Below, piece by piece: positions 1 through 42,060 of a stretch of DNA of 42,060 nt (position 1 is the first letter of the stretch; each line of letters begins with the position of its first letter). A program made the position numbers and the translations under genes. The DNA comes from a virus. The notes beneath the pieces are model-generated. The model worked only from the letters and a program-made list of their open reading frames with translations. It searched no databases and had not been told where the DNA came from. Where the stretch lies: the IMG/VR virus record IMGVR_UViG_3300009537_000052; one strand, given 5' to 3'.

Positions 1-99
1 AGCGGTTCTGCTCCTCGATCGCCGTCCGTCGCACCTCGATGAGGTTCTGGCGAATCGCCTCGACGCGCGCCGGGTCGATCAGGAACGGGAGGGGCTCGT
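1..99. repeat. Terminal overlap copy 1 (identical to 41962-42060)
   Basis: Compared base by base; 99/99 identical. It lies inside the tape-measure reading frame. Confidence 0.97.
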
Positions 100-1294
100 T
101 TCCCTTGTCCAGGGACGCGGCCCGGTCGAGCAGCCCCCTCACCACAGACTGGTCGATCGCCGGCGGAATCAGCTCGAGGCCCTGCCCCGCCTCCACCACC
201 CCCCAGAACCGCTCCATCCTGTCCGTCAGCGTGCTGACCGCCGTGCTCACGCCGTCGACCTGGCGCGCCGCGACCTCCGCCTGCTCGCCCAGGTCCTCGA
301 CCGGGCGGCCCCTGGCCGCCTCCCTGCCGAAGTCCTCGTACACCGAGGCGAGGTCGCCCATCTCCTGGGCCATCCCCCGCAGATGGGCGACCGCCTTGTC
401 GGTCGCGAACGGATTCAGGCTGGTGATCTTGGCCTGGACCTCGAGGAGCTGCTGGTACCCGCGCAGCACGGCGGCGATACCATCGTTGACGGCGCCGCGG
501 AGCTCGTCCCACCGCCGCGCGATCTCGCCAACGCGCTCTGCCAAGGCGCGCGTCACGGACGTGAGCGCCTCGCCGATGCCGCTGCGGAAGATCGCATCGG
601 ACAGCAGGGCGAACGAATCGCGCAGGTTCGACAGGGCGCCTTCGAGCGTCTTGCTTTGGCGCTCCATGCCCCCGGCGAAATCCGTCCTACCGATGTCCTC
701 GAGGTAGCTCACGATGGCGGCGGAGTCCTTCTGCACGGTCGTCGCTACGCCGCGGAAGGTGAATGTCACCTGTTCACCCTGCGTGCGCGCGACGACGCCG
801 AAGTCCTTGAGCCGCTCGAATTCCCCCGTCGCGGCGTCGGCAACGGCCTCCGCGAACTGCATCAAGCTTCGGCCGTTCGCGGAGGCGGTGTCGCCGAGCG
901 AGGTCAGCAGCCCGATGGTCGGGCGGAGCCCGACGGCCTGCAGCCGGGCGTGAGCCCGCACCACCTCCTGGAGCTCGAAGGGGGTGCGAGCGGCAAAGTC
1001 CGACAGGCGCTCGAAGACGGCCTCCGCCTTCCCCACGTCCCCGCCGGTCAGCGTCACGAGCTGCTGCCGCAGCTGCTGATACGCCGAGCCGAGCTGGACC
1101 ACCTCGCGCACCACGGCGCCCAGAGCGATCCCGCTGACGACATTCCGCAGCGCCCCCAGAGACACACCGACGCCACCGATCGCCTCTTTCGTCGATCGCG
1201 ACTCGACGCCCACCTCGCGCAGCTGGCGCTTGATCGTGCGCAGATCCGCGCCCGTCGCGTTCTGGATGTCGATGCGGATGTTGAAGCGGGGCAC
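1..1294 (-). CDS. Tail tape measure protein, N-terminal part (continues across the circular junction into 38903..41961)
   Basis: The minus frame is open from the GTG at 1294 to base 1. GAGG lies 8 nt upstream of that GTG, which sits 13 nt after the GT stop. It is the same frame as ORF 38903..41995 once 41962-42060 is laid over 1-99. My translation reads FNIRIDIQNATGADLRTIKRQLREVG...LSDFAARTPFELQEVVRAHARLQAVGLRP, a tape-measure core-like motif. The ORF track omits it because it runs off the window edge. Confidence 0.85.
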   Translation of the reverse strand, partial: MPRFNIRIDIQNATGADLRTIKRQLREVGVESRSTKEAIGGVGVSLGALRNVVSGIALGAVVREVVQLGSAYQQLRQQLVTLTGGDVGKAEAVFERLSDFAARTPFELQEVVRAHARLQAVGLRPTIGLLTSLGDTASANGRSLMQFAEAVADAATGEFERLKDFGVVARTQGEQVTFTFRGVATTVQKDSAAIVSYLEDIGRTDFAGGMERQSKTLEGALSNLRDSFALLSDAIFRSGIGEALTSVTRALAERVGEIARRWDELRGAVNDGIAAVLRGYQQLLEVQAKITSLNPFATDKAVAHLRGMAQEMGDLASVYEDFGREAARGRPVEDLGEQAEVAARQVDGVSTAVSTLTDRMERFWGVVEAGQGLELIPPAIDQSVVRGLLDRAASLDKGNEPLPFLIDPARVEAIRQNLIEVRRTAIEEQNR

Positions 1295-1307
1295 GGTCAG
1301 GGCCTCG

Positions 1308-2167
1308 TCAGCTGCGGCTCTTCGCCTCTCTGTCTTCGTCCCTCTCCTGCTGCCAGAGGCCTACCTCGTCGTCGAGGGCCGCCCACAGCTGGAGCATCGC
1401 GGCGCGGTGTCCAGGGTCTCGGTAGCCGTGCTCGTCGAGCCACGCATACTTCTCGCGCAGCGGGATGCCACCAGGCCCCCCGAGGCCTCCGGACTGACGG
1501 GTGAGCTGCTGGTACGCGCCGGCGACCGCCTGGGCCGGGGGGGCAAGCGACGGGGCGTCGGCGAGCTGACTCGGCGTTTCGCCCCGGTCCAGGCATTCGC
1601 GGATCGCTCGCCTCTGCAGTGCGGTCAGTCCGCCGAGGGCTCCAAGTTTCCAGGCGTACCAGCGCCGGAGTTTTTTTCCATCCCCCGAATCCCTCTGGAC
1701 CGGTACTCCTCGATCGCGCGAGACTCGCGGACGACCCAGTCGAACAGGCTCTCGCCGTCCTCGATGCCCCGGCGCGCCTCGAGCGCGAAGAGGTCGGCGG
1801 CCGTCTCTGGCGAGTACTCCACCTCCCCGTCCTTGCCGATCACCCACCCCTCCGGGGGCGTCTCGCCCAGATCGAGCTCGAGAGCCAGTCCCTCCCACCC
1901 GGCGAGGATGTGACGGGCCACGCCCTCGATGTCGGGCAGGAGCATCGCCGCCGCGCCAGCGGGCAGACGACGCAGTTCGACCGCGCCGCCAGCCTCCCCC
2001 CCCTCGGCGGCCTGTGCCTCGAGGGCCGGGAGGATCGCGTCCCAGCGGTTGGTCAACACGTGCCGCTGGTAGTCGTGGTTTCCCTCCCGCCGGATCAGAA
2101 AGCGGACAGGGCCGCGCTCCACCCAGCGCGAGTCCGCCAAACCGTCGTAGGCGATGTTCAGCCTCAC
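1308..2167 (-). CDS. Tail assembly chaperone GT (-1 frameshift fusion, about 286 aa)
   Basis: ORF 1308..1898 only becomes protein-like from ...KKLRRWYAWKLGALGG, exactly at the A7 run where the G frame reads GMEKNS. It ends 13 nt before the tape-measure start. Confidence 0.75.
1625..2167 (-). CDS. Tail assembly chaperone G (zero-frame product, 180 aa)
   Basis: The GTG at 2167 overlaps the stop of the upstream tail-tube gene (GTGA). The realistic part of ORF 1625..2707 begins VRLNIAYDGLADSRW. The gene sits between the tail tube and the tape measure. Confidence 0.8.
   Translation of the reverse strand: MRLNIAYDGLADSRWVERGPVRFLIRREGNHDYQRHVLTNRWDAILPALEAQAAEGGEAGGAVELRRLPAGAAAMLLPDIEGVARHILAGWEGLALELDLGETPPEGWVIGKDGEVEYSPETAADLFALEARRGIEDGESLFDWVVRESRAIEEYRSRGIRGMEKNSGAGTPGNLEPSAD
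1670..1676 (-). promoter_or_regulatory. -1 programmed ribosomal frameshift slippery heptamer A_AAA_AAC
   Basis: The minus strand reads ATG GAA AAA AAC TCC in the G frame and GGA AAA AAA CTC CGG in the -1 frame. A T7 run at 1671-1677 on the plus strand is unique in this GC-rich genome apart from the A8 at 16142. Confidence 0.8.
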
Positions 2168-14827: not shown

Positions 14828-15264
14828 CCCGTCCCCTCATGCTGCTGTTTCGCCACCTTCACCTTGCCTCTCGCCGCGGGCGTCAGCCCCACCTCGGTGA
14901 GCAGCTGGCGGGCATCCCGCATGGCTGCGTCACGCGCTGCCACCGCTGGGTGCACCTTCTTCAGGCCGGTGCGCGTCTCGTAGAACCGCCCCTCCTCAGC
15001 GAGCAGCTCCTCGAGCTCCTCCCACTCGGCCAGGCGCGATGCGAGAAGGGCGTAGATCCGGCGGTGATCCGGCGTGAGGTAGCCGAGAGCCTCCGTGGCC
15101 CTGATCAGCTCGCGGAAGATCCGGCGGGCACGCTTCGACAGGGCCCCGACGACAGGCGGGCGTCCCGTGCGGAGCTTCGGCTGGTCGGGGTTGAGGCGCC
15201 TCTTCTCCGCGGTGCCCCGCAACACCTTGAGCTCGTCCGGGATGCGGCGACGACCAGCGCTCAC
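14800..15264 (-). CDS. terS: Terminase small subunit, P27 family (154 aa)
   Basis: The GTG at 15264 overlaps the upstream stop (GTGA). The N-terminus (RRRIPDELKVLRGTAEKRRLNPDQP) and C-terminus (GLTPAARGKVKV) match the P27-type pattern. Confidence 0.85.
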   Translation of the reverse strand: MSAGRRRIPDELKVLRGTAEKRRLNPDQPKLRTGRPPVVGALSKRARRIFRELIRATEALGYLTPDHRRIYALLASRLAEWEELEELLAEEGRFYETRTGLKKVHPAVAARDAAMRDARQLLTEVGLTPAARGKVKVAKQQHEGTGWDQLLRKV

Positions 15265-16088
15265 GGGTTCACTAGCAAGTCGATGAACCACAGCGCGTCG
15301 ACCTTTCGGAGGTGGCGCGCGACCTGGTGCGGGTGCGTGGCGCAGAAGCGTCGGATCGCGCTGCGCTTGATCACGTACGGGTCGCCGCCCTGGGTGGCCG
15401 TCCGCTCCGTCTGCCTTCGCCGATGAGCCAGTAGGCCGAGATGGATCCAGCGCGTGATTACCTTCGTGTCGACGCCGAGCAGCCCCGCGACCTGGGCCGC
15501 GGACAGGTTGTCGTCGCGGTCGCGCATCCCGAGGCGCAGCCGCTTGCGGCGCATGTTGATCGCCGACGGACTACGCCTCACGCCGGACACCTTCAACACG
15601 GCGCGCTGGACCGCCTCGACCGACATCCCTGCCAGGCGCTCGAGCACCTGGTCCTCCTCGGAGGTCCACTCCGGCTGCCGAAAGCGCGGGACGACCAGCC
15701 CGAGCTTTAGCGCCCGCTTCTTCACCCACCACGCCGGCCGCCCCAGCTCCGCCGCCAGCTCGCGCACCTTCCTCGCGCCAGGATTCTCGTAGCACTGGCG
15801 AATCGCCGCATCGATCGACGGGGAGCTCGCCCAGACCCGCGGGCGCCCACCGCGGCGCCCCGTCGAGTCCGGCGCGGCCTGCACGCCGCGCTTCGCGGCC
15901 TGGCAGTAGATCGCCGCGGCCGAGCGTCGCGGCAGGCGGGCGAGGCACCCGTCGAGCCCCTCGGTCGGGTAGTACTCGCGGAGGATGGCGAGCTCCGCCG
16001 AGCTCCATCTCCGGTGCGGCAGCCCCTCCCGGGCCGGGTCGGGGAGCAGCGATCGGGGCGACCGGGCCCCTGGGCTTCGGTCAGGCAT
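15261..16088 (-). CDS. DNA-binding protein with Myb/SANT-like repeats and a C-terminal MerR/excisionase-type HTH (275 aa)
   Basis: RWSSAELAILREYYP and PEWTSEEDQVLERL are W-x2-E-E/D-type repeats. LSAAQVAGLLGVDTKVITRWIHLGLL is an HTH. The gene lies directly upstream of terS. Confidence 0.65.
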   Translation of the reverse strand: MPDRSPGARSPRSLLPDPAREGLPHRRWSSAELAILREYYPTEGLDGCLARLPRRSAAAIYCQAAKRGVQAAPDSTGRRGGRPRVWASSPSIDAAIRQCYENPGARKVRELAAELGRPAWWVKKRALKLGLVVPRFRQPEWTSEEDQVLERLAGMSVEAVQRAVLKVSGVRRSPSAINMRRKRLRLGMRDRDDNLSAAQVAGLLGVDTKVITRWIHLGLLAHRRRQTERTATQGGDPYVIKRSAIRRFCATHPHQVARHLRKVDALWFIDLLVNP

Positions 16089-16120
16089 TTTGCCCGCGCG
16101 TGAATTCGACTGCCCAGGCG

Positions 16121-16168
16121 GTCTGCGCCCCAGGCGACTTCAAAAAAAACGGCATCCGTCTGCGCCCC
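16121..16168. repeat. 11-bp direct repeat gtctgcgcccc (16121-16131 and 16158-16168) flanking an A8/T8 tract (16142-16149)
   Basis: Read directly from the sequence. It lies in the 80-bp gap between the HNH gene and the Myb-like gene. Confidence 0.85.
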
Positions 16169-27703: not shown

Positions 27704-27939
27704 GCCACCTCCTCAGACACCGACTCGACCTGGTCGCCGAAAAGCTCGTCGAGGGTCAGGTCGGGCCAGCGCTGGCGAAAGTGCGCAACGATGGCGTTCG
27801 CCTCGGCGACGTTCCAACGGATCTCGCCGCCGAGCTTCCTCGAAACCGTGGCGGCCGTCAGGCCGAGGACGCGGGCCACTTCTACCTGGGTGACGTCGTG
27901 CTCCCGAAGGAACGATTCGAAGCGGGGCGGGTTACGCAT
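27700..27939 (-). CDS. Cro-like HTH early regulator (79 aa), leaderless or near-leaderless
   Basis: MRNPPRFESFLREHDVTQVEVARVLGLTAATVSRKLGG contains an XRE-type HTH. The ATG at 27939 lies 10 nt downstream of the -10 box, with no SD. The TTG start at 27978 in the track is actually the -35 box. Confidence 0.72.
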   Translation of the reverse strand: MRNPPRFESFLREHDVTQVEVARVLGLTAATVSRKLGGEIRWNVAEANAIVAHFRQRWPDLTLDELFGDQVESVSEEVA

Positions 27940-27946
27940 TGCGTAA
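27932..27946. promoter_or_regulatory. Operator-like perfect 15-bp palindrome TTACGCA-T-TGCGTAA centred on the Cro-like ATG
   Basis: Read directly from the sequence. A related site, TACGC-C-TGCGT, lies at 27954-27964 inside the promoter spacer. Confidence 0.7.
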
Positions 27947-27949
27947 ACA

Positions 27950-27978
27950 ACCATACGCCTGCGTTGCGCATATGTCAA
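27950..27978 (-). promoter_or_regulatory. Early lytic promoter: -35 TTGACA (27978-27973), 17-nt spacer, -10 TATGGT (27955-27950)
   Basis: Read on the minus strand: TTGACA tatgcgcaacgcaggcg TATGGT tgtttacgca ATG. Confidence 0.7.
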
Positions 27979-28031: not shown

Positions 28032-28412
28032 GTGGGCTTCGCGGACCGCCTCCGTGCCGCCATGAGGGCGCGAGGGCTCACGCAAGCCCAGGTCGCCGAG
28101 ATCCTGGGCGTCAGCGACGCCGCCGTCAGCCGCTGGTGCACGGGAGACAACGCCCCCGACCTCGCCACACTGGCGCGGCTGAGCGGGATCACCAGAACGC
28201 CCACGGACGACCTTCTCGGCCTCCCTGGCCCGGACGGCATCGCAGCGAAGCAGCTGCGGGCGATCAAGGTGGAGCTGCGCAGCGTTCAGGCCCGCCTCGG
28301 CGTGATCATCGCCGCGAGCGAGTCGGCGCGCGCGGCCGTGGGCGAGGTGCTTGACTCTCAGCATGACGACGGAGCACCCACACCAGGCGATTCCGCCAAG
28401 CGAAAGCGATGA
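28032..28412 (+). CDS. CI-like XRE-family repressor without a peptidase domain (126 aa; alternative starts at 27972 and 28002)
   Basis: It is divergent from the Cro-like gene. AGGAGG lies at 28014-28019. VGFADRLRAAMRARGLTQAQVAEILGVSDAAVSRWCTGDNAPDLATLARL is a canonical HTH N-terminus. Confidence 0.72.
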   Translation: MGFADRLRAAMRARGLTQAQVAEILGVSDAAVSRWCTGDNAPDLATLARLSGITRTPTDDLLGLPGPDGIAAKQLRAIKVELRSVQARLGVIIAASESARAAVGEVLDSQHDDGAPTPGDSAKRKR

Positions 28413-28560
28413 GCGCTCGCCGCAGCGACGCAGTCCCCTCCGGGTCATGGCTTCCATCCCGCTCGAGCAGGTCACTCGCCACCCTCGCGGCCTCCTCGAG
28501 ATCACCCGCGGCAACGGCTGCTCGCACACGCGCCACCATCACGGCCTCTTCGCCATCCAT
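28306..28560 (-). CDS. Hypothetical protein (84 aa), convergent with and overlapping the 3' end of the repressor gene
   Basis: The ATG at 28560 has GGGAGG 6 nt upstream. The first 50 aa are protein-like (MDGEEAVMVARVRAAVAAGDLEEAARVASDLLERDG). The last 35 aa overlap the repressor gene and are Arg/Pro-rich. Confidence 0.35.
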   Translation of the reverse strand: MDGEEAVMVARVRAAVAAGDLEEAARVASDLLERDGSHDPEGTASLRRALIAFAWRNRLVWVLRRHAESQAPRPRPRAPTRSRR

Positions 28561-28644
28561 CCCGCGCCTCCCTTCCTGTGAGGTTCGTGCTCACCCAGGA
28601 GGTGACTCGTTGGGCGCTGGCGTGGCAGAGTAAAGAGCCGAACG

Positions 28645-29028
28645 ATGGGCAAGCCAACCCAGGTCAGCCCCGGCTGCGCGTGCCTCGTCCTTCTCGTCGG
28701 CGCCCTCGGGATCGGTTGGTGCACCTACGTCGCCACTGAGGGCGGCGGCGGGGCCTCGCCGCCAGCCCCGACCCAGGCCGCCCTCGTCGCCCGCTTCCAG
28801 GGGCCAGACGAACCCACCGCCAAGGATGCGTACTGGTCGACCCCCCAGACGTTCCTCGTCGGCGTGCTCGACGACGGTTCAAGCCGCGACGGCTACGCCC
28901 GGTACGTCTGCGAGGTCCTGCGCGAGAACGGGATGGTTACAGGCTACCGAGTCAAGGTCATCGACGCGGCCAAACTCGCGCGGGAGAACAAGCGGGCAGT
29001 GCTCGGAGAGGCACGCTGCGGCCCCTGA
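28645..29028 (+). CDS. Membrane-anchored or exported protein on the lysogeny side (127 aa)
   Basis: MGKPTQVSPGCACLVLLVGALGIGWCTYVA is a hydrophobic N-terminus. The remainder looks globular. Confidence 0.6.
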   Translation: MGKPTQVSPGCACLVLLVGALGIGWCTYVATEGGGGASPPAPTQAALVARFQGPDEPTAKDAYWSTPQTFLVGVLDDGSSRDGYARYVCEVLRENGMVTGYRVKVIDAAKLARENKRAVLGEARCGP

Positions 29029-29048
29029 CTTTCGCCCCACTTTCCCCA

Positions 29049-29077
29049 TTGCGTCCGTAGCGCAAACGCGCTACAAT
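29049..29077 (+). promoter_or_regulatory. Promoter of the accessory operon: -35 TTGCGT, 17-nt spacer, -10 TACAAT, with ATG 6 nt downstream (leaderless)
   Basis: TTGCGT ccgtagcgcaaacgcgc TACAAT gcagtc ATG. There is no SD. Confidence 0.6.
29058..29073. promoter_or_regulatory. Operator-like palindrome TAGCGC-aaac-GCGCTA overlapping the -10 box
   Basis: Read directly from the sequence. It differs from the Cro/CI operator motif. Confidence 0.6.
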
Positions 29078-29083
29078 GCAGTC

Positions 29084-29569
29084 ATGGCAAGGGCGCAGCA
29101 GCTGGGCACGATCACCAGCCTCGACGGCCTCCGCGAGCTCGCGGCCGAAGGCGTCATCTACGTGCGCTATAGCCGCGGGCACCGCGACGACATCCGCCGC
29201 GGCTATTCGCTCAACCACCAAACTCGCACTCGCGAGCCGGGGCTCTCCGCGCAGGCGATCCGCCCCGACGACTGGCAGAGCGGCCCCGGCTGGGTCGCGC
29301 GGCTGCTCGCCGACTACGCGGCCCGGCTCCTCTACGACGCCGACAGCTACGGCTGGGTCTGTCGCGCTCGCCAGGTCGGCACCGACGCTGACGGCTGCCC
29401 GGCCATCACCGACATCATCACCCTCGCCATTCTCGACACCGAGCTCGTCCGTAGGTGCATCGCCTACTCGCGCGCCGTGTACGAGCGCGACCGGACCCAC
29501 CGTGGCGTCAACGACACCCGCCCATGGCCCGCTATCACCGACTACCTTTCCGAAGGAGACGAGAGATGA
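29084..29569 (+). CDS. Accessory operon gene 1, unknown function (161 aa)
   Basis: MARAQQLGTITSLDGLRELAAEGVIYVRYSRGHRDDIRRG...EPGLSAQAI...GWVARLLADY. I recall a vague resemblance to the actinobacterial DUF6098 family (unverified). Confidence 0.65.
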   Translation: MARAQQLGTITSLDGLRELAAEGVIYVRYSRGHRDDIRRGYSLNHQTRTREPGLSAQAIRPDDWQSGPGWVARLLADYAARLLYDADSYGWVCRARQVGTDADGCPAITDIITLAILDTELVRRCIAYSRAVYERDRTHRGVNDTRPWPAITDYLSEGDER

Positions 29570-30189
29570 CCACCTACACCGACCCGATCACCGGCCGCGA
29601 GCGCACCACCGCCGCCGAACACAACCAGGAGGAGAGCATGCCCTACTACATCGCCACCGACGCCGACGGGCTCGCCATATACGGCATCGGCCGCTCGGAG
29701 GACGCCGCCCGCGCCGACGCTGAGACCGGCGAGAGCGACGCCACCTACTACGTCTACCGCGCGACCGAGCGTCTGTACCGGGCGGTCGCCGAGGGCGGTG
29801 GTGCGCCGCAGGATGTCCGCTGGTCGCTGGTTGGCGGCATAGCCGCCGACTACTGCGCCGAGCACGGCATCTGCGATCGCCACACCGCAGACCTCGACGC
29901 CCAGGAGGAGGAGACCATATACGACATCGTCCGAAGCCTCCAAAAGCGTTTCGAGGCCGAGCTGTCACAGCTCACGCCCGGCATGCAAGAGCTCGAAGTC
30001 TCAAGGTGGGAGGACGAGCCGTGGTGGCCACTCGGGCCCCGCGTCGACCCGCGTTCCCTAGCTTGGCGCGTCCCTGGTGGCGGGCTCGTGGAGTTCACGA
30101 GCACCGGCCCAGACCATGGCTTCGTCATCGCGGCCCGACCATCCGCGCCCACGCTGGAGGCCACGCCACGAGCGCGGCGGCAGGCATGA
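29566..30189 (+). CDS. Accessory operon gene 2, unknown function (207 aa)
   Basis: ATGA overlap with gene 1. Acidic, protein-like composition. Confidence 0.6.
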   Translation: MTTYTDPITGRERTTAAEHNQEESMPYYIATDADGLAIYGIGRSEDAARADAETGESDATYYVYRATERLYRAVAEGGGAPQDVRWSLVGGIAADYCAEHGICDRHTADLDAQEEETIYDIVRSLQKRFEAELSQLTPGMQELEVSRWEDEPWWPLGPRVDPRSLAWRVPGGGLVEFTSTGPDHGFVIAARPSAPTLEATPRARRQA

Positions 30190-30368
30190 GCACCCCCACC
30201 AGCATCCGGCTCAGCGACGACGGCGCGGCGATCCTGCTGCGCCTCGTCGCCGAGCTCGGCCTGAGCCGCACCGGCGTCATCGAGCTCGCGCTCCGCGTCC
30301 TCCAGGAGCGCGAGCGCCAAGCCGGCACCCTCCAGCAGCACCCGCCCAAGAGGCGGACGCGGCGATGA
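30186..30368 (+). CDS. Accessory operon gene 3, ribbon-helix-helix (CopG/Arc-like) protein (60 aa)
   Basis: ATGA overlap. MSTPTSIRLSDDGAAILLRLVAELGLSRTGVIELALRVLQE has a strand-helix-helix pattern. Confidence 0.68.
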   Translation: MSTPTSIRLSDDGAAILLRLVAELGLSRTGVIELALRVLQERERQAGTLQQHPPKRRTRR

Positions 30369-30847
30369 TTCGCATCATCAACGACGGCCCCCGCATCGTC
30401 TCCACCGACTACTGGTCGACCGAGCACGCCCGGCGGGGCCTCGTCTACCTCTCCATCAACGCCGGCGCGGTTCGGCTCCTCCTCCCCGACACGATCGCCA
30501 CCGACATCGTCGAAGAGGCGCGGTGCGCCGACAGCGCCGTCGTCTCCCGCGGGCCGTGGGAGGCGGAGGGCGGGCGCGACTCGCTCGAGGTTCTCTTCGA
30601 GGACGGCTCCGACTCCCCCTTCGCACTCCACCTCGACGCGCGCCAGGCCGACCGGCTCTGGCTCCCGGCCGACGATGGCCGCGAGGTCACGCTCTCGCTG
30701 TGGGGGCGCGGCGACGGCGACCGCGCGCGCAAGATCCTCTCGCTGCCCCGCCACTCTGCGCCGTGTCCCCCGGATCCCATGTCTGCGACCAGCAGGAGAC
30801 GACCGATGACCACCGCCCAGAAAGTGGCCAGCCATGGCCACCAGTGA
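30365..30847 (+). CDS. Accessory operon gene 4, unknown function (160 aa)
   Basis: ATGA overlap. MIRIINDGPRIVSTDYWSTEHARRGLVYLSINAGAVRLLLPD. Confidence 0.6.
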   Translation: MIRIINDGPRIVSTDYWSTEHARRGLVYLSINAGAVRLLLPDTIATDIVEEARCADSAVVSRGPWEAEGGRDSLEVLFEDGSDSPFALHLDARQADRLWLPADDGREVTLSLWGRGDGDRARKILSLPRHSAPCPPDPMSATSRRRPMTTAQKVASHGHQ

Positions 30848-30853
30848 GCAGCC

Positions 30854-31954
30854 GTGACGAAGGACCGGCGACGCTCCATCCGCGAGCTCCCCTCGGGGCG
30901 CTACCAGGTGCGGATGCGCCGAGCCGGGCAGACTATCGCGCAGACCTTCACGACCCTCCCACAGGCCGAGCGCTTCCGCGACCTGGTCGAGGTCGACGGG
31001 GCGCTGAGGCGCCACGGCCTCCCCGGGATCACCCAGGAGCGCCGGCGGCTCGTCGACCTGGTCGAGGCCTTCCGCGAGGAGGCAGACGCGCGGGCCCTCG
31101 AGGGGAGCTTGCGCGCGTCGACGGCCGAGGCCTACCGCAAGCAGACGGCCGGCCCCCTCAAGTGGCTCCTCGAATCCGGGCGAGAAACCGTGAACGCCGC
31201 TGAGCTCGACGACCGCGCCGTCGCCGCCTACGTCGCCTGGCGCCGCGGCCGGCGGCTCAGCGACGACGCGCGGCGGCCGGCGGGCAGCGTCCAAGTGCGC
31301 AAGGATCTGGTGATGCTGCGTCGCGTCTACGGGTGGGCCGCCGTCGAGCCGGCGTGGAGAATCCCGCGCCACCTCCCCAGGAGCACCGGCGGCAAGCGCG
31401 TCGTCCCGCGGACCCAGCTGTTCGCCTGGCTCGACGCGATGCCCCGGGGCTCCCTGCAGCGCACCGTCGCCGAGCTCGCGATCGCGACCGGCATGCGCCC
31501 GGGCGACATCTACGCCCTCGAGTTCGACCAGGTCGACCTCGCCAACAAGCTGATCACCTTCGCGGCGGCGAAGACGGGGCGCGCCCAGGTCGTCCCGATC
31601 GGCGACGAGCTCCACGCCCACCTCGAGGCATGGCTCCGCGAGCGCATGCCCGCGATCACCCGCCGGCTCTTCCACCTCCGCGGCCTCCCCCTCACCGACC
31701 AGACGCTCCGCTCCCGCTTCCGCACGGCCAGCAAGGCAGCGGCGATAGAGCCACCGCTCCAGTACCTCGGCGTCGCGAGGAACGCCGTCATCGCCTGGCT
31801 CCTCGAGGCCGGGCAAGATCCCTACGCTGTGGCCCGCCTCGTGGGGCACAGCCAGCTCGCGACGACCATGGGCTACCAGAGGGCCTACCTGCCCCTCGAC
31901 GCGCTCAGGAGGGCGACAGGGGCGCTCTCGGACATGCGGAGGGGCGACACGTGA
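30854..31954 (+). CDS. int: Tyrosine recombinase / phage integrase (366 aa)
   Basis: The N-terminus has a SAM-like region. Catalytic-domain blocks: ATGMRPGDIYALEF (Arg), LVGHSQLATTMGYQ (His...Tyr). An attP-like site lies 1.2 kb downstream. Confidence 0.9.
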   Translation: MTKDRRRSIRELPSGRYQVRMRRAGQTIAQTFTTLPQAERFRDLVEVDGALRRHGLPGITQERRRLVDLVEAFREEADARALEGSLRASTAEAYRKQTAGPLKWLLESGRETVNAAELDDRAVAAYVAWRRGRRLSDDARRPAGSVQVRKDLVMLRRVYGWAAVEPAWRIPRHLPRSTGGKRVVPRTQLFAWLDAMPRGSLQRTVAELAIATGMRPGDIYALEFDQVDLANKLITFAAAKTGRAQVVPIGDELHAHLEAWLRERMPAITRRLFHLRGLPLTDQTLRSRFRTASKAAAIEPPLQYLGVARNAVIAWLLEAGQDPYAVARLVGHSQLATTMGYQRAYLPLDALRRATGALSDMRRGDT

Positions 31955-32220
31955 CGACCGACGTCAGGATCGATGATCTCCGGGAACTCGTGCGCAAGCC
32001 TCCCCGCCACGGCCTCCGACGAGTCACCTGCTGGCGGTGCGGGCGGCGCCGGATCCAGGCCAGGCCCTTCGAGAAGCTGTGCCGCGAGTGCTGGCCGGTC
32101 TTTGCCGCCGAGTGGAACGCGACGATCGATGAGATTCGGGGCAAGATGGAGGACGAGATCCGGCGCCTTGAGACCACCCTTGCGACCGAGGCATCGCGGA
32201 AGGCGTCGGATAGAGCCTGA
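31951..32220 (+). CDS. Zinc-ribbon plus coiled-coil protein (89 aa); possible directionality factor (speculative)
   Basis: The GTG at 31951 overlaps the integrase stop (GTGA). Cys motifs: CWRCG...CRECW. Confidence 0.55.
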   Translation: MTTDVRIDDLRELVRKPPRHGLRRVTCWRCGRRRIQARPFEKLCRECWPVFAAEWNATIDEIRGKMEDEIRRLETTLATEASRKASDRA

Positions 32221-32284
32221 CCGGGCCCCTAGCTCGCCTCGTCGCCACGGGGGCGCTCAGCGACATACGGAGAGGAGAGACGTG

Positions 32285-32806
32285 ATGCAGATGCACCGGG
32301 GCAAGGTCCTGGGAGCCCGGTGGAGGCGACCCCGGAAGCGCGGCGGGGTGAAGAGGTTCGCCCCTGAGCTTGTCCTATGGCGCCTGGGGATCTCGGACGC
32401 CGAGGTCGACGAAGCGCTCGCGTACGACATCGGCGACGAGCCAGGCGACCGCATCGTCCACTACACGCGCCCAAAGAGCTGGTATGGACGCGGAGAGGTT
32501 CTCGCGCTGCTCTTTTTCCTGAAGCAGCGTGACCCCGCCCTTTCTCTCGACGACCTCTTCAACGGGCCGGTCGAGCACGGGCGGGCAGCGATGAAGGCCG
32601 CCTGCCAGAGGCGTGAGGCATCGAAGGCGCTCCGGGCCATGTTTGACCGGCCCCGCACCCCGCATCACGCGAAGCAACAGCGCGCGATGAGGGCGGCCGC
32701 GGCGGGCAGCGTAGCTGCGATGCGCCTGCTCCCCCTTTTCGACTCGGCACATGCCCACGAGAAGGTCAACCCCCAGTGGCCTCCAGGCATCGACGCCTTC
32801 GCCTAG
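32285..32806 (+). CDS. Hypothetical protein (173 aa)
   Basis: GGAGAGGAGAGA lies upstream of GTG 32282 / ATG 32285. The gene is followed by a strong hairpin. Confidence 0.55.
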   Translation: MQMHRGKVLGARWRRPRKRGGVKRFAPELVLWRLGISDAEVDEALAYDIGDEPGDRIVHYTRPKSWYGRGEVLALLFFLKQRDPALSLDDLFNGPVEHGRAAMKAACQRREASKALRAMFDRPRTPHHAKQQRAMRAAAAGSVAAMRLLPLFDSAHAHEKVNPQWPPGIDAFA

Positions 32807-33149: not shown

Positions 33150-33199
33150 TGGTGCGGCTGGAAGGATTCGAACCCTCGACCTAGAGCTTAGGAAGCTCC
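33150..33199 (-). other. attP-like core: 50-nt copy of the 3' part of a tRNA-Arg(CCU), from the anticodon stem to CCA
   Basis: The minus strand reads GGAGC-TTCCTAA-GCTCT AGGTC GAGGG-TTCGAAT-CCTTC CAGCCGC A CCA. No D-arm or 5' acceptor strand lies upstream. Confidence 0.75.
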
Positions 33200-33234
33200 C
33201 CCAAACGGCTCGGGCGCAGCGGAAAAAGCTATAT

Positions 33235-36698: not shown

Positions 36699-38906
36699 CT
36701 AGCTCCCCCAGACGGTCATTTGCACGTCGCCGCGGGCCGCGTCCTCGGTCAGCCCGACGATCACGCCCCTGAGCCCCGCGAGCGTGTACCTGTCCACCGT
36801 CGAGCCCATCTCCACCTCGTCGCCCACCTCGTGCGCGAACAGCGCGTCGACGCGCCCCAATCGGTACATGCGCCGCCCCACCACACCTATGAGGCTGCGC
36901 AGCCGGGCCGCCAGCGCCCGAGCCCCAGCCTCCGTCTGCGCTCGCGACGGGAACGTCTCCGGCTCGGAGCCGATGATGTCGGCGTAGATCGAGAGGTCGG
37001 TGTCCTCCGCGAAGCGCCACTCCTTGGTCAGGCCCGCCAGGTCCTCGAGCTCCGCCGCGGCGCCGGCGAGGTCGTTGGCCGCGTAGAAGCGCTCGTGGTG
37101 GTAGTAGCCCACGGCGATCTGCCACGGCGGCGGCGGCAGGTCGATCGGGTCGAGCGGGCTCGAGAGCACGTCCCCATCGTCTAGCGCTGTGGCGCCCACG
37201 ATGCCCTCGGGCACGGGGAGGACGCGCACGGAGAGCTTGTCGGCCCGCGTGAACGTCCACCACCCATCCGGGGCGGAAAGCTCGTCGAGCGCGGCCGACG
37301 CCGCGACCGGTGACGTCCCTGCGTACCACCCGCAGTCGCCAGCGACGTCGGCCGCGGCCGCGGCGGTGAAGGCCGCCGTGTCGATGTCCCCCGGGTCCGC
37401 CAGGCCCACCTGGTGGACCGCGATGCGCCGCATGATCGTGTGCCGTGCAGCGGAGTAGCCGCCCTCGGTGTTCCCCTGGCAGGTCACCGTGAGCTCGCCC
37501 GCGGGATCGGCGTTCAGCAGGATGCAGCCGTACGCCGTGCACGGGTAGTAGTCGACCCCGGAGAACGTCAGCCCGGACACGTAGGGCTCGGCCTGGTCGG
37601 CGCCGGCGGTGAGCTCGACGCCGCGGTCCTTCACGGAGCTCACCGCGTTGATCGGCCCGTCGACGACGTAGTAGACGAGGGTCCCGGCGGCGTTGCGTGC
37701 GTCGTCGATCAGGATCCCGGGCGCCTCGCGCACGACCCCCCACCCCACGGGGCGCGGCGTGCCGGCGAGCGACTCCGGGCCCTCGAGGGAGCCCACCCAC
37801 GAGTTGCCGTTGATCGTGCCCGTGTTCCCGTTTCCGCTCGTGTCGGCGACCGAGGTGGGCGGCGAGCCCCCGACGGAGAAGTCGTCGAGCCGCCAGTACC
37901 CATCGAGGGAGGCGATCAGCTCGTCGCCCACGGCGCGGTGCTCGCGGTAGAGCTCGATGTCCGCCTGGGTGAGGGCCGCGGAGTACACCCTGGCCTCCCA
38001 GACGTCCTGCTTTCCATCCTGCGCCGAGTAGCCGATTTTGAAGGTGTCGGCGGCCGCCGCGCGGGTCCCGCTCCCCAGGGTCAGCGACTCGGTCGTGAGG
38101 CTCTGGGCGTCGTCGTCCCAGATGTAGACGACGACGGCCGTCCCGGTCACGGTCACCGCCAGGTGGTACGTCGTCCCCGCCGCGAGGGTCGCCGTGGTGC
38201 TCACCGAGTACGTCGTACCGCTGTTCTTGTGCTGAAAGACCACCTGCCCGGTGGCGCTCAGGTGCAGGTCGAACGGGTAGCTCGTCCCGCTCGAGGCAGC
38301 CCACGTCTGCAGCGCCTGGTTCCCGGTCCCGCCGAGGGTGTAGAGCCGCACCCAGGCCATCAGTGTCAGGGCGCCCGTCAAGTTGACCTCGGCCGGCGTC
38401 GAGGACCAGGAGACGTACTCGCCGGCCTCGAAGCGCAGCGCCGGCCCAAAGCCGCGGAAGGTGCGCGTCTGCACCTGGTGGTCGAAGAGCTGGCGCCGAT
38501 CGCGCGCCGGGAGGTGGAGCTCGAGCTCGGAGCCGAAGGCGTTACGCGAGGCGACGCCCTGGAACACCGTCGTCGCCGCCGAGTACGCGTTGCCCTCGTC
38601 GGCGAGGTACTCGAGCAGCAGGGCGCTCCCCGCCCACTCGTAGGCGAGCAGGTAGTCCCACTCGCCGGCCGCGTTCGCGATCGTCACGTCGCCGTAGTAG
38701 GGCGGCGAGCCGTAGGTGAGGCGGCCGCCCTGCATCACCTCGTGGCGGCGGTTGTACGGGCTCATCAGCGCCGAGCGCCAGAGCGCCGCCGATGGCGTGT
38801 CGGCGATCAGCGAGCTCCACCCGAGGGAGCCCATGCGCACCGTCACCTGGCCGTCGGTGACGGGGTCGTAGGGCGTCCCAGTCAGCAGCCAGACCGGACG
38901 GCTCAC
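36699..38906 (-). CDS. Distal tail / hub protein with an internal LamG (concanavalin-like) domain (735 aa)
   Basis: The GTG at 38906 overlaps the tape-measure stop (GTGA). LTLMAWVRLY...TYHLAVTVTGTAVVVYIWDDD...VWEARVYSAALTQADI is a LamG-like pattern. Confidence 0.78.
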   Translation of the reverse strand: MSRPVWLLTGTPYDPVTDGQVTVRMGSLGWSSLIADTPSAALWRSALMSPYNRRHEVMQGGRLTYGSPPYYGDVTIANAAGEWDYLLAYEWAGSALLLEYLADEGNAYSAATTVFQGVASRNAFGSELELHLPARDRRQLFDHQVQTRTFRGFGPALRFEAGEYVSWSSTPAEVNLTGALTLMAWVRLYTLGGTGNQALQTWAASSGTSYPFDLHLSATGQVVFQHKNSGTTYSVSTTATLAAGTTYHLAVTVTGTAVVVYIWDDDAQSLTTESLTLGSGTRAAAADTFKIGYSAQDGKQDVWEARVYSAALTQADIELYREHRAVGDELIASLDGYWRLDDFSVGGSPPTSVADTSGNGNTGTINGNSWVGSLEGPESLAGTPRPVGWGVVREAPGILIDDARNAAGTLVYYVVDGPINAVSSVKDRGVELTAGADQAEPYVSGLTFSGVDYYPCTAYGCILLNADPAGELTVTCQGNTEGGYSAARHTIMRRIAVHQVGLADPGDIDTAAFTAAAAADVAGDCGWYAGTSPVAASAALDELSAPDGWWTFTRADKLSVRVLPVPEGIVGATALDDGDVLSSPLDPIDLPPPPWQIAVGYYHHERFYAANDLAGAAAELEDLAGLTKEWRFAEDTDLSIYADIIGSEPETFPSRAQTEAGARALAARLRSLIGVVGRRMYRLGRVDALFAHEVGDEVEMGSTVDRYTLAGLRGVIVGLTEDAARGDVQMTVWGS

Positions 38907-41900
38907 GAGACCCTCCGCAGCGCCGACGAGGAGAGGTCAGCGGCCAGGCGGTCGAGAGTCCCCTGCTGCGCATCGACGCTCGAGCGCAGCTGGACCACCT
39001 CGTCGCGCAGGTCGTAGAGGGCGAGGAGCTGCTGATCGGACGTGTTGCCGAGCCGGAAGAGCTGCTCGTTCGTCGTCGCGCTCCCGCCCACCAGGGCGTT
39101 GAGCTGGTCGGCGCCAGGGAACACGGCCAGATTCGGCCCGGTCCCGTTGACCAGATCGACGCCCAGCAGCTGGTCGGTGATCGTCGCGACGAGCGAGAAG
39201 ATGTCGTCGTACTGCGTCGAACCCGCGAAGAACCCGCGGGCGAGCTCGAGGAGCTGCTGGGCCACTTCCGGGAAGCGCTGCAGCGCGTCGACGTCGCCGC
39301 CCAGGGCCGCGTTGGCAACCTCGTCGAAGAGCGATCGGGCGTTGACCAGCCGGGCCCGGTCGGTGAGCGGGGCCAGGTCGCTCGTCTGCAGGCTCTCCTG
39401 GAAGGCGCGGATGCCGGCCAGGTAGCGCTCGTTGAGCGCCTCGAGGGCCAGGTTGTAGGCCTCTGTCAGCTCCGCGGTGTCGCCGAACACATCCCGGAGC
39501 ACCTCGAAGTCGGCGTTGATCCGCGAGAGCTCCTGGGCGAAGGCCGAGGCCCCCTCTCCACCCTGCTGCGCAGCAAGGTAGAAGTCGAGCAGCTGCTCCT
39601 GGGCGAGCTCGAGCGCGTCGATCTGGCGCTGGGTCAGGTGCGTCGTTCTCGTCCCGTCGCGGTAGCCGCCGAGGAAGGACTCCAGCTGCTCGATGTAGGC
39701 CACGGCCTGAGACAGCTGGGATCCGCCCCCCATAAAGGAGCGGACGGAAGTCAGGAGCTGCTCGAAGTTGGTGATGAATTCCGAATAGCTCCCCGCGCCC
39801 GTGCCCGGCAGGGTGGGGGGGACAACGTCGCCTGGCTTCGGTGGGCCCTTCTCTTTGAACTCGCGCAAGAGGCGCTCATACTCGTCGACGATGTCGAGGT
39901 CGAGGCCGAACTTCTCCTCTGCGATCCGCAGCTCCGCGAGCTGCACCTGCATCTCGGCGACCTTGAGCTTGTATGAGAACTCCGCCGCCTCCTTGGTCCT
40001 CCCTAGAGCCTGGAGCAGGTATAGGACCGCGCTCTGAGCCTCCGCGGTGACGGTCTCCTGCGACTCCCTCCTCACAATGTGGGCAAGCCGACGACGATAG
40101 CCCTCCAGCTCCTCTTCCGAGATCAGGCCGGCCTCGAAGAGCGCCTGGAGCTCCTCACCGATCTCTTCCGCCTGGCGGCGCATGCCGTTGAGGCCGCGTA
40201 GCAAGTCGCTGTTCTGACCGAAGCCTCGTAGCCTTCCAAGTGCGTCGTCACGCATCTGCTCCTGCGCGGCCTGCTGCGCCTCGCCCAGCCCGGCCGTGAG
40301 CCGCGCGAGCACCTCGTCGGTGATCAGCCCCTGCTCGGCGAGGAGCGCCAGGGACTCCCGCCAGCCGTCGGTCTGCTCCGCGAGGGCGGCGACCTGAGCA
40401 GCGATGTCGTTCCCAGCGATGAAGCGCTCGACCTCGCCGACCACGCCGGCAGCGAGCCGCTCCAGGGCCGCACCCTCGGCCTCGGCAAGCGTCCCCAGGT
40501 GCTCGGCCAGCTCGGCGGCGCCGAAGCCGGCATCGGTGACGCGCTCGCGCAGCTCGGCGAATCGTTCGCGAGCCGCTTCGATCTCGCCCCCGAGCCCCTC
40601 GCGCAGCAGGCCCGACAGCTCGTCGCGCAGCTGCTCGCGCTCCTGCTGGGCGGCCTGCCGCTCCGCCTGGCGCTGCCCGCGGCGATCCCGGCGGCGGATG
40701 TCCGCGGGATCGATCGCCTCAGGCAGGCCCCCGAGGAGCTCGCGGATGGCGTCGATCTCGCGCTGGATGTCCGCTGGCAGCCCGGCCGGGTACAGGTCCT
40801 GTGGGCCGCCCCCCCGCGGCGTGATGTCAGTGGTCTCGTACCCGCCCCGGCTCCCCACCGCACGGTTCGCCTCGCTACGCCGCCTCGCGGCGCGCTCCTC
40901 CTGATCCGCCGCCACCTCTGCCGCCCGGGCGGACATCTCCAGGGCCGCCGCCAGGCGCGCGAGCTCCGCCGCGTACTCGCCGCGGATCCGCGCGAGCTCG
41001 GCGTTGAACTCCTCAGCGGCCGCGCGGCGCTCCTGGTACTCGTCGCGCTCAACGCCGACGATCTGGTCGCGGAGATCCTGGAGGTTGCCCACGAACTCCA
41101 TGACGGCCGGGAGCCCGCTTGCGCCGAGCTCCTCGAGCTGCTGTCGGAACGAATCGAACTGGTACTCGAGGTCGCGCAGCTCTCTCGTCGTCGGCTGCAG
41201 ATCGGCAGTCGAGATCTCGCGCAGATGCTCGAGGACCTCGAGCACGCCCTCGACGCCCCCGGCCGCATCCGCGTTCTCCAGGATGGAACGGACGTCGTCG
41301 GAGATCCCCCCCCACTCCGCGAACCGCAGAGACGTCGCGAGCACCCACCTGGTCGCCTCGTCCACCGAGCGGAAGACGCGCTCGTAGTGGGTGCCGGCGC
41401 TGTCCCAGACGTGCGCCCACACCTCGCCCTGCTTCTTGACGTTGATCTGGACCTTCGGCAGCGACGCGAGCACGCCGCCCGTCAGATGCTCCACCTCGCG
41501 GACCGTGTCCTGGATCGACCGCAGCGCCTCGGACAGAGCGTCGAACTGGTCCGCGACGGATGCGAAGATGTCCTCCCGCCCGCCCTCGAGCGTCAGGGAC
41601 CCGGTGGTGTAGTTCTGCTTCGCCTTCTCGGCCTGGACCCACGCGACGGCCGCGGCCATGATCCCCAGGGCGGCGCCGGCGCTGCTGTATCCACCGCCAC
41701 CGCCAATGTTGCCGCCGCTCTGCGTTGGCCCGTAGAGGCCCGACGACGACGCGGCGGCCATCGCCCCCTGATTGGCGATCCACGCCTGGAGCATCTCGCC
41801 GAGGTAGTCGATGAAGACGTCGAGGAGCCGGTTGAACAGGTTCTCGAACGACAGCTCCCCCGTGCGCACAATCTCCGAGAAGGTCTCGCGGAAGGCGCCA

Positions 41901-42060
41901 CCGATGCGTCCTGCGATGTCCCGCCCGGCCTCTTGCGCGATCAGGTCCGCCTCGGCCGCCCAGCGGTTCTGCTCCTCGATCGCCGTCCGTCGCACCTCGA
42001 TGAGGTTCTGGCGAATCGCCTCGACGCGCGCCGGGTCGATCAGGAACGGGAGGGGCTCGT
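38903..42060 (-). CDS. Tail tape measure protein, C-terminal part (the gene starts at 1294 across the junction; joined length 4353 nt, 1450 aa)
   Basis: The 1030-aa track ORF is Ala/Glu/Leu/Arg-rich coiled coil. The GTG listed at 41995 is internal, and the frame stays open to the window end. Confidence 0.9.
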   Translation of the reverse strand, partial: EPLPFLIDPARVEAIRQNLIEVRRTAIEEQNRWAAEADLIAQEAGRDIAGRIGGAFRETFSEIVRTGELSFENLFNRLLDVFIDYLGEMLQAWIANQGAMAAASSSGLYGPTQSGGNIGGGGGYSSAGAALGIMAAAVAWVQAEKAKQNYTTGSLTLEGGREDIFASVADQFDALSEALRSIQDTVREVEHLTGGVLASLPKVQINVKKQGEVWAHVWDSAGTHYERVFRSVDEATRWVLATSLRFAEWGGISDDVRSILENADAAGGVEGVLEVLEHLREISTADLQPTTRELRDLEYQFDSFRQQLEELGASGLPAVMEFVGNLQDLRDQIVGVERDEYQERRAAAEEFNAELARIRGEYAAELARLAAALEMSARAAEVAADQEERAARRRSEANRAVGSRGGYETTDITPRGGGPQDLYPAGLPADIQREIDAIRELLGGLPEAIDPADIRRRDRRGQRQAERQAAQQEREQLRDELSGLLREGLGGEIEAARERFAELRERVTDAGFGAAELAEHLGTLAEAEGAALERLAAGVVGEVERFIAGNDIAAQVAALAEQTDGWRESLALLAEQGLITDEVLARLTAGLGEAQQAAQEQMRDDALGRLRGFGQNSDLLRGLNGMRRQAEEIGEELQALFEAGLISEEELEGYRRRLAHIVRRESQETVTAEAQSAVLYLLQALGRTKEAAEFSYKLKVAEMQVQLAELRIAEEKFGLDLDIVDEYERLLREFKEKGPPKPGDVVPPTLPGTGAGSYSEFITNFEQLLTSVRSFMGGGSQLSQAVAYIEQLESFLGGYRDGTRTTHLTQRQIDALELAQEQLLDFYLAAQQGGEGASAFAQELSRINADFEVLRDVFGDTAELTEAYNLALEALNERYLAGIRAFQESLQTSDLAPLTDRARLVNARSLFDEVANAALGGDVDALQRFPEVAQQLLELARGFFAGSTQYDDIFSLVATITDQLLGVDLVNGTGPNLAVFPGADQLNALVGGSATTNEQLFRLGNTSDQQLLALYDLRDEVVQLRSSVDAQQGTLDRLAADLSSSALRRVS
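41962..42060. repeat. Terminal overlap copy 2 (identical to 1-99)
   Basis: Same as copy 1. Confidence 0.97.

Follow-up and report, generated by a model that had tools for sequence, protein, structure and literature searches.

The locus analyzed in this study lies at positions 29049–30847 of IMG/VR virus record IMGVR_UViG_3300009537_000052, a stretch of 42,060 bp from a temperate phage that is referred to here in its full length as the window, and it carries four small genes, named g1–g4, between the repressor gene and the integrase gene on the plus strand. g1 (29084–29569), g2 (29566–30189), g3 (30186–30368), and g4 (30365–30847) encode products of 161, 207, 60, and 160 aa, respectively, and are joined by ATGA overlaps at 29566, 30186, and 30365, while the GTG start codon of the tyrosine integrase gene stands 6 nt past the g4 stop codon. 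These overlaps, the product sizes and the distance to the integrase gene had all been given correctly in an earlier note made from the sequence. The GC content at third codon positions (GC3) of the four open reading frames (ORFs) was 0.84–0.95 (0.88 for g1), which equals the coding signal of the genome.

The integrase gene (366 aa; 30854–31954, plus strand) was placed in the same transcription unit as g1–g4 because its start codon follows the g4 stop so closely. It is followed on the same strand by an 89-aa ORF with a CxxC...CxxC motif (31951–32220), the GTGA start of which overlaps the integrase stop, and then by a 173-aa ORF (32285–32806) that has the Shine-Dalgarno (SD) sequence GGAGAGGAGAG, matches no family, and is the last gene on the strand before the probable phage attachment site (attP). 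No terminator-like site above chance was found between the genes of the unit. Thus the locus, described earlier as a separately operated four-gene operon, does possess a promoter-like site of its own but is not self-contained, as the integrase gene and the 89-aa ORF continue the unit and the ORF at 32285–32806 follows them. From this arrangement we infer that g1–g4 are co-transcribed with the integrase gene, and since no terminator-like site above chance interrupts the unit, among candidate promoters for the integrase gene the one at 29049 is the best. A 42-nt direct repeat (79% identity) was also observed at 31913–31954 and 32244–32285. Each copy ends in ACGTGA precisely where an ORF begins, the 89-aa ORF in the first case and the 173-aa ORF in the second, and the repeat may represent either a regulatory site or a translation-initiation region that has been duplicated.

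Upstream of g1, the −35-like hexamer TTGCGT (29049–29054, plus strand), which lies inside the 8-mer CATTGCGT, is separated by a 17-nt spacer from the −10 hexamer TACAAT (29072–29077), and the latter ends 6 nt (GCAGTC) before the ATG at 29084, upstream of which there is no SD sequence; all of these positions were as first reported. A −10 hexamer ending 5–8 nt before a start codon that lacks an SD sequence is the arrangement taken here to mark a leaderless gene, and g1 has it. TACAAT occurs a single time in the 42 kb, and a looser promoter scan (8/12 matches) of both strands of the window found the g1 site alone, with about three such sites expected by chance in Markov shuffles.

Similar promoters were then seen before other members of the g1 family, Pfam DUF6098. 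In the locus L061 (262–299), TTGACT-17-TACATT stands 6 nt before the ATG and its spacer holds the perfect palindrome CTAACGTTAG, and in L054 (5968–6003), TTGGCA-16-TATAAA stands 5 nt before the ATG with the perfect spacer palindrome TGCATGCA; the spacer palindromes of the window, L054 and L061 are each a different sequence. A third DUF6098 relative, in L052, has a normal leader behind the consensus promoter TTGACA-17-TATATT. Within the window itself, the ATG of the cro-like gene (27939, minus strand) lies only 10 nt past the −10 of a strong TTGACA-17-TATGGT promoter (within 27932–27978). The g1 promoter was taken as real because the −10/leaderless geometry recurs before the DUF6098 relatives in L054 and L061, and these sequence comparisons make a leaderless promoter at 29049–29077 probable.

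The spacer of the g1 promoter contains a perfect 7+4+7 palindrome, GTAGCGC-AAAC-GCGCTAC (29057–29074), which overlaps the −10 hexamer as stated in the earlier note, where each arm had been read one base too short. It is the only zero-mismatch copy of this sequence in the window and is a candidate operator. The centres of its half-sites are separated by 11 bp, a spacing that presumably suits binding by an RHH (ribbon-helix-helix) dimer of dimers of the Arc/CopG type. The 60-aa g3 product, with a basic tail, was assigned to this type through Pfam RHH_1, and its sequence pattern (short strand, helix A, G-x-S, helix B) is one that we take to fit the RHH fold. By its sequence, g3 is a probable transcriptional repressor. 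As g3 is the sole DNA-binding protein encoded in the operon, autoregulation is the simplest model, and the protein probably binds the 18-bp palindrome and represses the operon. The arrangement resembles those of phage P22 Arc and Mnt and plasmid CopG in combining a small beta-alpha-alpha protein of the RHH_1 family with an inverted repeat whose half-sites lie one helical turn apart and overlap the −10 of the protein's own operon; it differs from them in that the RHH gene occupies the third place in the operon and not the first, the family match is marginal, and the operator is putative.

The same promoter might alternatively be controlled by the phage repressor CI or by Cro, in the manner of lambda OL/PL, so that g1 would head an early operon that stays off in the lysogen, the 18-bp palindrome being incidental. 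CATTGCGT has just two copies in the window, one covering the g1 −35 hexamer (29047–29054) and the other forming half of TTACGCATTGCGTAA, a perfect 15-bp palindrome (27932–27946) that overlaps the start of the cro-like gene, and this common element suggests that the repressor or Cro may also act at the g1 promoter, as at lambda OL. The layout further parallels lambda cI-(rex)-PL-...-int, and palindromes of the 18-bp size are expected by chance. However, only a half-site is shared, two or more copies of CATTGCGT turned up in 8 of 100 shuffles, and the full 15-bp operator TTACGCATTGCGTAA had no second copy in the window even when 3 mismatches were allowed. Moreover, the DUF6098 relatives of other elements also bear spacer palindromes, with differing sequences. 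Control by CI or Cro in place of g3 was therefore considered unlikely. The statement that the promoter palindrome is unlike the Cro/CI operators still needs a qualification: it is true of the complete operator, but the CATTGCGT element is common to both sites.

The g1 product matched Pfam DUF6098 with an E-value of 2.4e-20 and 73.1 bits (gathering score, 27.2) over profile positions 3–133 of 141. Its AlphaFold (AF2) model had a pLDDT of 87 and gave no match in a Foldseek search against the PDB. Close relatives of g1 are rare (seven protein clusters). Scanning genome contigs with the DUF6098 alignment found nothing, and a metagenome scan found one short DUF6098 contig. The relatives sit in other contexts, without g2–g4. 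In detail, the DUF6098 gene of L051 lies 1 kb beyond an integrase gene with an opposite-strand HNH gene between them, that of L052 precedes a 91-aa gene and a helix-turn-helix (HTH) gene, that of L054 is the first gene of an early operon that also encodes RecT and a YqaJ exonuclease and runs divergently from a DnaB helicase gene, and that of L061 precedes an unrelated 148-aa gene. The earlier statement that the three larger proteins carry no assignable motif accordingly fails for g1, but it agrees with the searches of g2 and g4, neither of which had a Pfam match; NCBIfam, PHROGs, and PADLOC gave nothing for g1, g2 or g4.

For g2, no full-length homologue was found among 5.8 billion proteins, so that the gene is an ORFan as a whole. 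An exhaustive HMMER search showed that its residues ~26–112 belong with about 20 small, stand-alone acidic proteins of 73–126 aa, while its C-terminal half is unique. This N-terminal domain family had no match in Pfam, and its members were found on short, uninformative contigs only. A start codon at Met25 (29638), which has a strong AGGAGG upstream, was tried and rejected: the 24 codons before it have a GC3 of 0.96, and the g2 N-terminus MTTYT aligns with the family N-terminus MTTET. On both grounds the start at 29566 stands.

The product of g4 belongs to a large, unannotated family on mobile elements that includes 'yedA' of IncI1 plasmids, with 39% identity between g4 and YedA over 86% of g4 (E 1e-23). 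The family comprises 105 protein clusters with invariant N6, G8, R37, P41, and D80, and near-invariant polar residues S61, R62, E75, H89, and D96; g4 is homologous over the full length of the family and has all five invariant residues, while its last ~25 residues are disordered and divergent from the family. Relatives of g4 were found on 47 viral contigs (39–69% GC), three further contigs, and 1150 plasmid records. The family ranges from phages and phage-plasmids to conjugative plasmids, the latter numbering more than 1100, and its hosts span 39–70% GC. No Pfam, NCBIfam, PHROG or PADLOC model covers it. The predicted structure of g4 is a beta-rich fold (pLDDT 86), for which Foldseek returned no match better than E 0.04 in the PDB and BFVD, and every TM-score among the Foldseek matches of the g1 and g4 models was ≤0.34. 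Structure comparison, which had been proposed as a check of the proteins, hence assigned neither g1 nor g4. Profile searches against PDB sequences, g4 included, gave no match either, and no functional literature was found on yedA or DUF6098.

The neighbourhoods of the g4 relatives are heterogeneous. Among 118 neighbours (within three genes), the Pfam families found were DUF3440/PAPS-reductase (IbrA-like; 5), tyrosine integrases (5), and phage Dam-like methylases (2), with Ku, DUF932, DUF4942, a resolvase, and others as single cases. ParB-like nuclease genes, recognized by motif only, also lie near g4 relatives, and on a Desulfosarcina plasmid the g4 relative is flanked by a DUF4942 gene and ssb. 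A recurrent feature 1–4 genes upstream of g4 homologues (L007, L009–L011, L024/L025, L034, and others) is an IbrA-like PAPS-reductase/DUF3440 gene paired with what looks like a ParB-like nuclease gene (IbrB-like, by motif only), the PAPS-reductase-like cluster being present in 9 of the 45 clustered viral and plasmid loci.

The co-occurrence of the four families was evaluated in 63 fetched loci, 50 of which contain g4 homologues (47 viral and three further contigs). Relatives of g1, g2 or g3 were not found beside the g4 homologues in any of the 50 phage and plasmid loci, and the profiles of g1, the g2 N-terminal domain, and g4 never co-occurred over the 63 loci. Across these loci, the component families were not found in a conserved order in unrelated genomes. 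Further, g1–g4 had no match in PADLOC-DB at E-values up to 1. Judged by sequence, the best reading is that g1–g4 are a mosaic of unrelated, independently mobile phage and plasmid genes and not a conserved multi-gene defence or toxin-antitoxin (TA) system.

These data bear on the proposal that g1–g4 form one lysogen-expressed multi-gene system of anti-phage defence or exclusion with the RHH protein as its regulator. Its setting is suggestive, as g1–g4 occupy the interval from repressor to integrase, on the strand of the former and with their own promoter-like site, each junction is translationally coupled, and the proteins are uncharacterized. In mycobacteriophages of cluster N, this interval holds defence genes that are expressed from the prophage, and g1–g4 resemble these in genome position and orientation, a placement compatible with a defence role. 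On the other hand, g1–g4 are unlike the known defence proteins represented in PADLOC, their families were never together in the other loci examined, and g2 lacks a full-length homologue. Most g4 relatives and the DUF6098 gene of L054 are located outside lysogeny modules, in early regions, in accessory regions or on plasmids, which is a further difference from the cluster N genes, as is a host that is probably not an actinobacterium. A single defence system was consequently considered quite improbable. The idea of an uncharacterized multi-gene system was not supported, and the four-gene order was not found elsewhere in the 63 loci, whereas the view of these genes as accessory cargo on the repressor/integrase strand with a promoter-like site of their own was upheld.

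A type II TA pair, in which g3 would be the RHH antitoxin and g4 the toxin, autoregulated through the palindrome, was weighed in the same way. Like TA systems with RHH antitoxins (ParD, RelB, and MazE9/VapB types), the locus has a small RHH gene overlapping the start of a larger downstream gene, here by ATGA at 30365, and the best PDB sequence match of g3 was the RHH antitoxin MazE9, at a non-significant E-value of 0.22. However, ~45 distinct g4 loci showed no conserved small partner up- or downstream and no g3 relative, and on more than 1000 plasmids the g4 homologue stands alone or before a recombinase gene. The lack of a recurrent small partner argues against g4 being a TA toxin, and g4 is unlike any toxin family or fold. 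The candidate operator also lies two genes upstream of g3, where it heads a six-gene unit. An antitoxin-type pairing of g3 with g4, as raised in the earlier note, is thus highly improbable.

A role in integration or excision had been named as the fallback. On this view the neighbouring tyrosine recombinase would have g4, perhaps with g3, as its accessory or directionality factor, and part of the evidence agrees: g4 ends 6 nt before the integrase gene, and on IncI1 and IncFIA plasmids (L055, 6001–7195; L056, 6001–7201) a single nucleotide separates yedA from the downstream tyrosine recombinase gene resD, a coupling as tight as that of g4 with the integrase. An integrase gene is also present ≤1 kb from the g4 homologue in three further, distinct viral loci, and Phage_integrase ties with DUF3440 as the commonest Pfam family among g4 neighbours (5/118). 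In most lineages, however, no recombinase was found within 6 kb (Desulfosarcina, Shinella, Thioalkalivibrio, an E. albertii phage-plasmid, and ~35 viral loci), and a Shewanella plasmid likewise lacks an adjacent one. In the three viral cases the integrase gene precedes the g4 homologue instead of following it. The ~1000 enterobacterial plasmids have a common backbone and hence count as few independent events.

Neither a consistent linkage nor an excisionase was found. A recombinase gene lay within ≤1 kb of the g4 homologue in 5 of ~45 distinct loci, a distribution on which g4 as an obligate recombinase partner was rejected. Searches of g1–g4 for Xis or HTH_17 matches gave none, so no excisionase of the small winged-helix type was found next to the integrase gene, and g3 is of the RHH type and not of the winged-helix type usual for excisionases. 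The plasmid pair itself is comparable to the phage locus in that a g4-homologous YedA gene precedes a tyrosine recombinase gene by a few nucleotides, but ResD is a 259-aa multimer-resolution recombinase, while the integrase of the window is a phage integrase of 366 aa that has an arm-binding domain, and the pairing is missing from most other lineages of the g4 family. The fallback is therefore supported to a limited extent, by the gene order on IncI1/IncF plasmids and not by that of most other lineages, and it is considered unlikely. The tblastn alignment of g4 with yedA was observed to overrun the annotated yedA stop by ~27 nt into resD, and the plasmid yedA may, to judge from this alignment, be shortened at its C-terminus relative to the family.

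Taken together, we favour, with moderate confidence, an operon similar to the lambda leftward PL operon, composed of separately acquired accessory genes and the integrase gene, with the RHH protein probably repressing it at the spacer palindrome. Transcription would be initiated at a sigma-70-type promoter, TTGCGT-17-TACAAT, to give a leaderless mRNA whose 5′ end would coincide with the ATG at 29084 or adjoin it, and this mRNA would run through the four packed accessory genes, the integrase gene, and at least one more ORF to end before attP. g3, as a dimer of dimers on the 18-bp palindrome, would set the level of the whole operon, integrase included. The DUF6098 protein g1, g2 with its small acidic domain and unique tail, the RHH regulator g3, and the YedA-like g4 would each be separately mobile among phages and plasmids, and g1, g2, and g4 would each work independently in establishment or in modulating the host, possibly in counter-defence, rather than jointly in a defence machine expressed in the lysogen. 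In plasmid leading regions, orphan methylases, SSBs, and uncharacterized genes cluster with anti-defence genes (PMC11541004). Together with this enrichment, the presence of relatives in early operons, beside DNA-modification and recombination genes, and on plasmids makes establishment or counter-defence somewhat likelier than lysogen-expressed defence.

The likeness to the lambda PL operon and to phage moron cassettes lies in the use of the repressor strand, divergent from cro and the lytic genes, and in a string of small genes that look non-essential, are mixed in origin and separate in distribution, and end with an integrase gene by attP. The differences from lambda PL are that the mRNA of the window would be leaderless, that a local RHH repressor may be present, and that no N-type antiterminator, recombination genes, or excisionase gene beside the integrase gene are recognizable.

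Several points weigh against the favoured operon. With respect to the promoter, TTGCGT has only 3/6 matches to TTGACA, fewer than the four required of a −35 hexamer, a standard promoter scan did not list the 29049 site, and sigma-70-type promoter rules were assumed for the host. Perfect inverted repeats with 7-nt arms number 71 in the window against 57 ± 9 expected, so the palindrome alone is not unusual and it was weighted by its position only. The reading of the third gene as an RHH protein is borne out by an RHH_1 score above the cut-off, but with a slim margin (20.8 bits vs. a gathering score of 20.5; E 3.7e-4), and the phage repressor may, through the shared CATTGCGT, control the g1 promoter instead of g3. 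As for function, g1 and g4 have no sequence or structural match to any protein of known function, the assignment of g1, g2, and g4 to establishment, host modulation or counter-defence was drawn from their neighbourhoods, and exclusion genes expressed in lysogens also typically lie between repressor and integrase. Finally, the proposed operon and its putative transcript start were deduced from the letters of the DNA.

The genome around the locus has a GC content of 70% and reads as that of a temperate siphophage. Its tape-measure gene is split over both ends of the window (1–1360 and 38906–42060, minus strand), and therefore the 42,060 bp were taken as a complete, circularly permuted phage genome. 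The minus strand carries the cro-like gene, a Dam-type methylase gene, replication genes, the genes for the large terminase, portal, and major capsid protein, tail genes, and an amidase lysin gene, and the plus strand at 27.9–32.8 kb carries the genes for a CI-like HTH repressor and a 127-aa membrane-anchored protein, followed by g1–g4, the tyrosine integrase gene, and two further ORFs. The region matched no isolated phage genome in searches at the DNA and protein levels, and two exact-sequence look-ups of window proteins returned no record (in the first, perhaps because the coordinates took in the stop codon). The large terminase is nearest to those of phages of Proteobacteria, with identities of ≤51%; by sequence the host need not be an actinobacterium, and it probably is not one.

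A tRNA-like sequence at 33153–33217 (minus strand) matched the Rfam tRNA family with 32.1 bits, its 3′ part, from the anticodon arm to the CCA end, reading as tRNA-Arg(CCT), while ARAGORN called no tRNA there. It is probably the attP core of the integrase, and as such could reveal the host through the corresponding attB.

Other features near the locus were also observed. The 127-aa protein (28645–29028, plus strand), encoded between the repressor gene and the g1 promoter, has an N-terminal membrane anchor and belongs to PHROG 7191 (unknown function), and its position is typical for superinfection-exclusion proteins. No close relatives of this protein or of the integrase were found among viral contigs, nor any of the integrase in genome contigs. 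Positions 28306–28640, which separate the repressor gene from that of the membrane protein, show periodic GC3 in the plus-strand frame with no convincing ORF, and an 84-aa ORF there on the minus strand has the wrong GC pattern over codon positions. Far from the integrase gene, a 292-aa protein (15264–16139, minus strand) combines a D5-like regulator match with a C-terminal excisionase-like segment (PHROG 2907), the only excisionase-like match in the genome.

As a system, the locus is an ordinary mosaic accessory cassette of a temperate phage, and the YedA-like and DUF6098 families are the parts of it that deserve attention. Tentatively, and with considerable doubt, g4 and the YedA of IncI1 plasmids could represent a family of new fold that acts when a mobile element enters a new cell, either in counter-defence or as an aid to tyrosine recombinases, with DUF6098 as a second such family that is typically encoded first in a leaderless, operator-controlled unit. 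DUF6098 genes repeatedly head leaderless promoters that bear palindromes, which offers a simple and testable regulatory model. The g4 family is widespread on clinically important IncI1/IncF plasmids, and knowing its function would allow thousands of genes on plasmids and in phages to be annotated.

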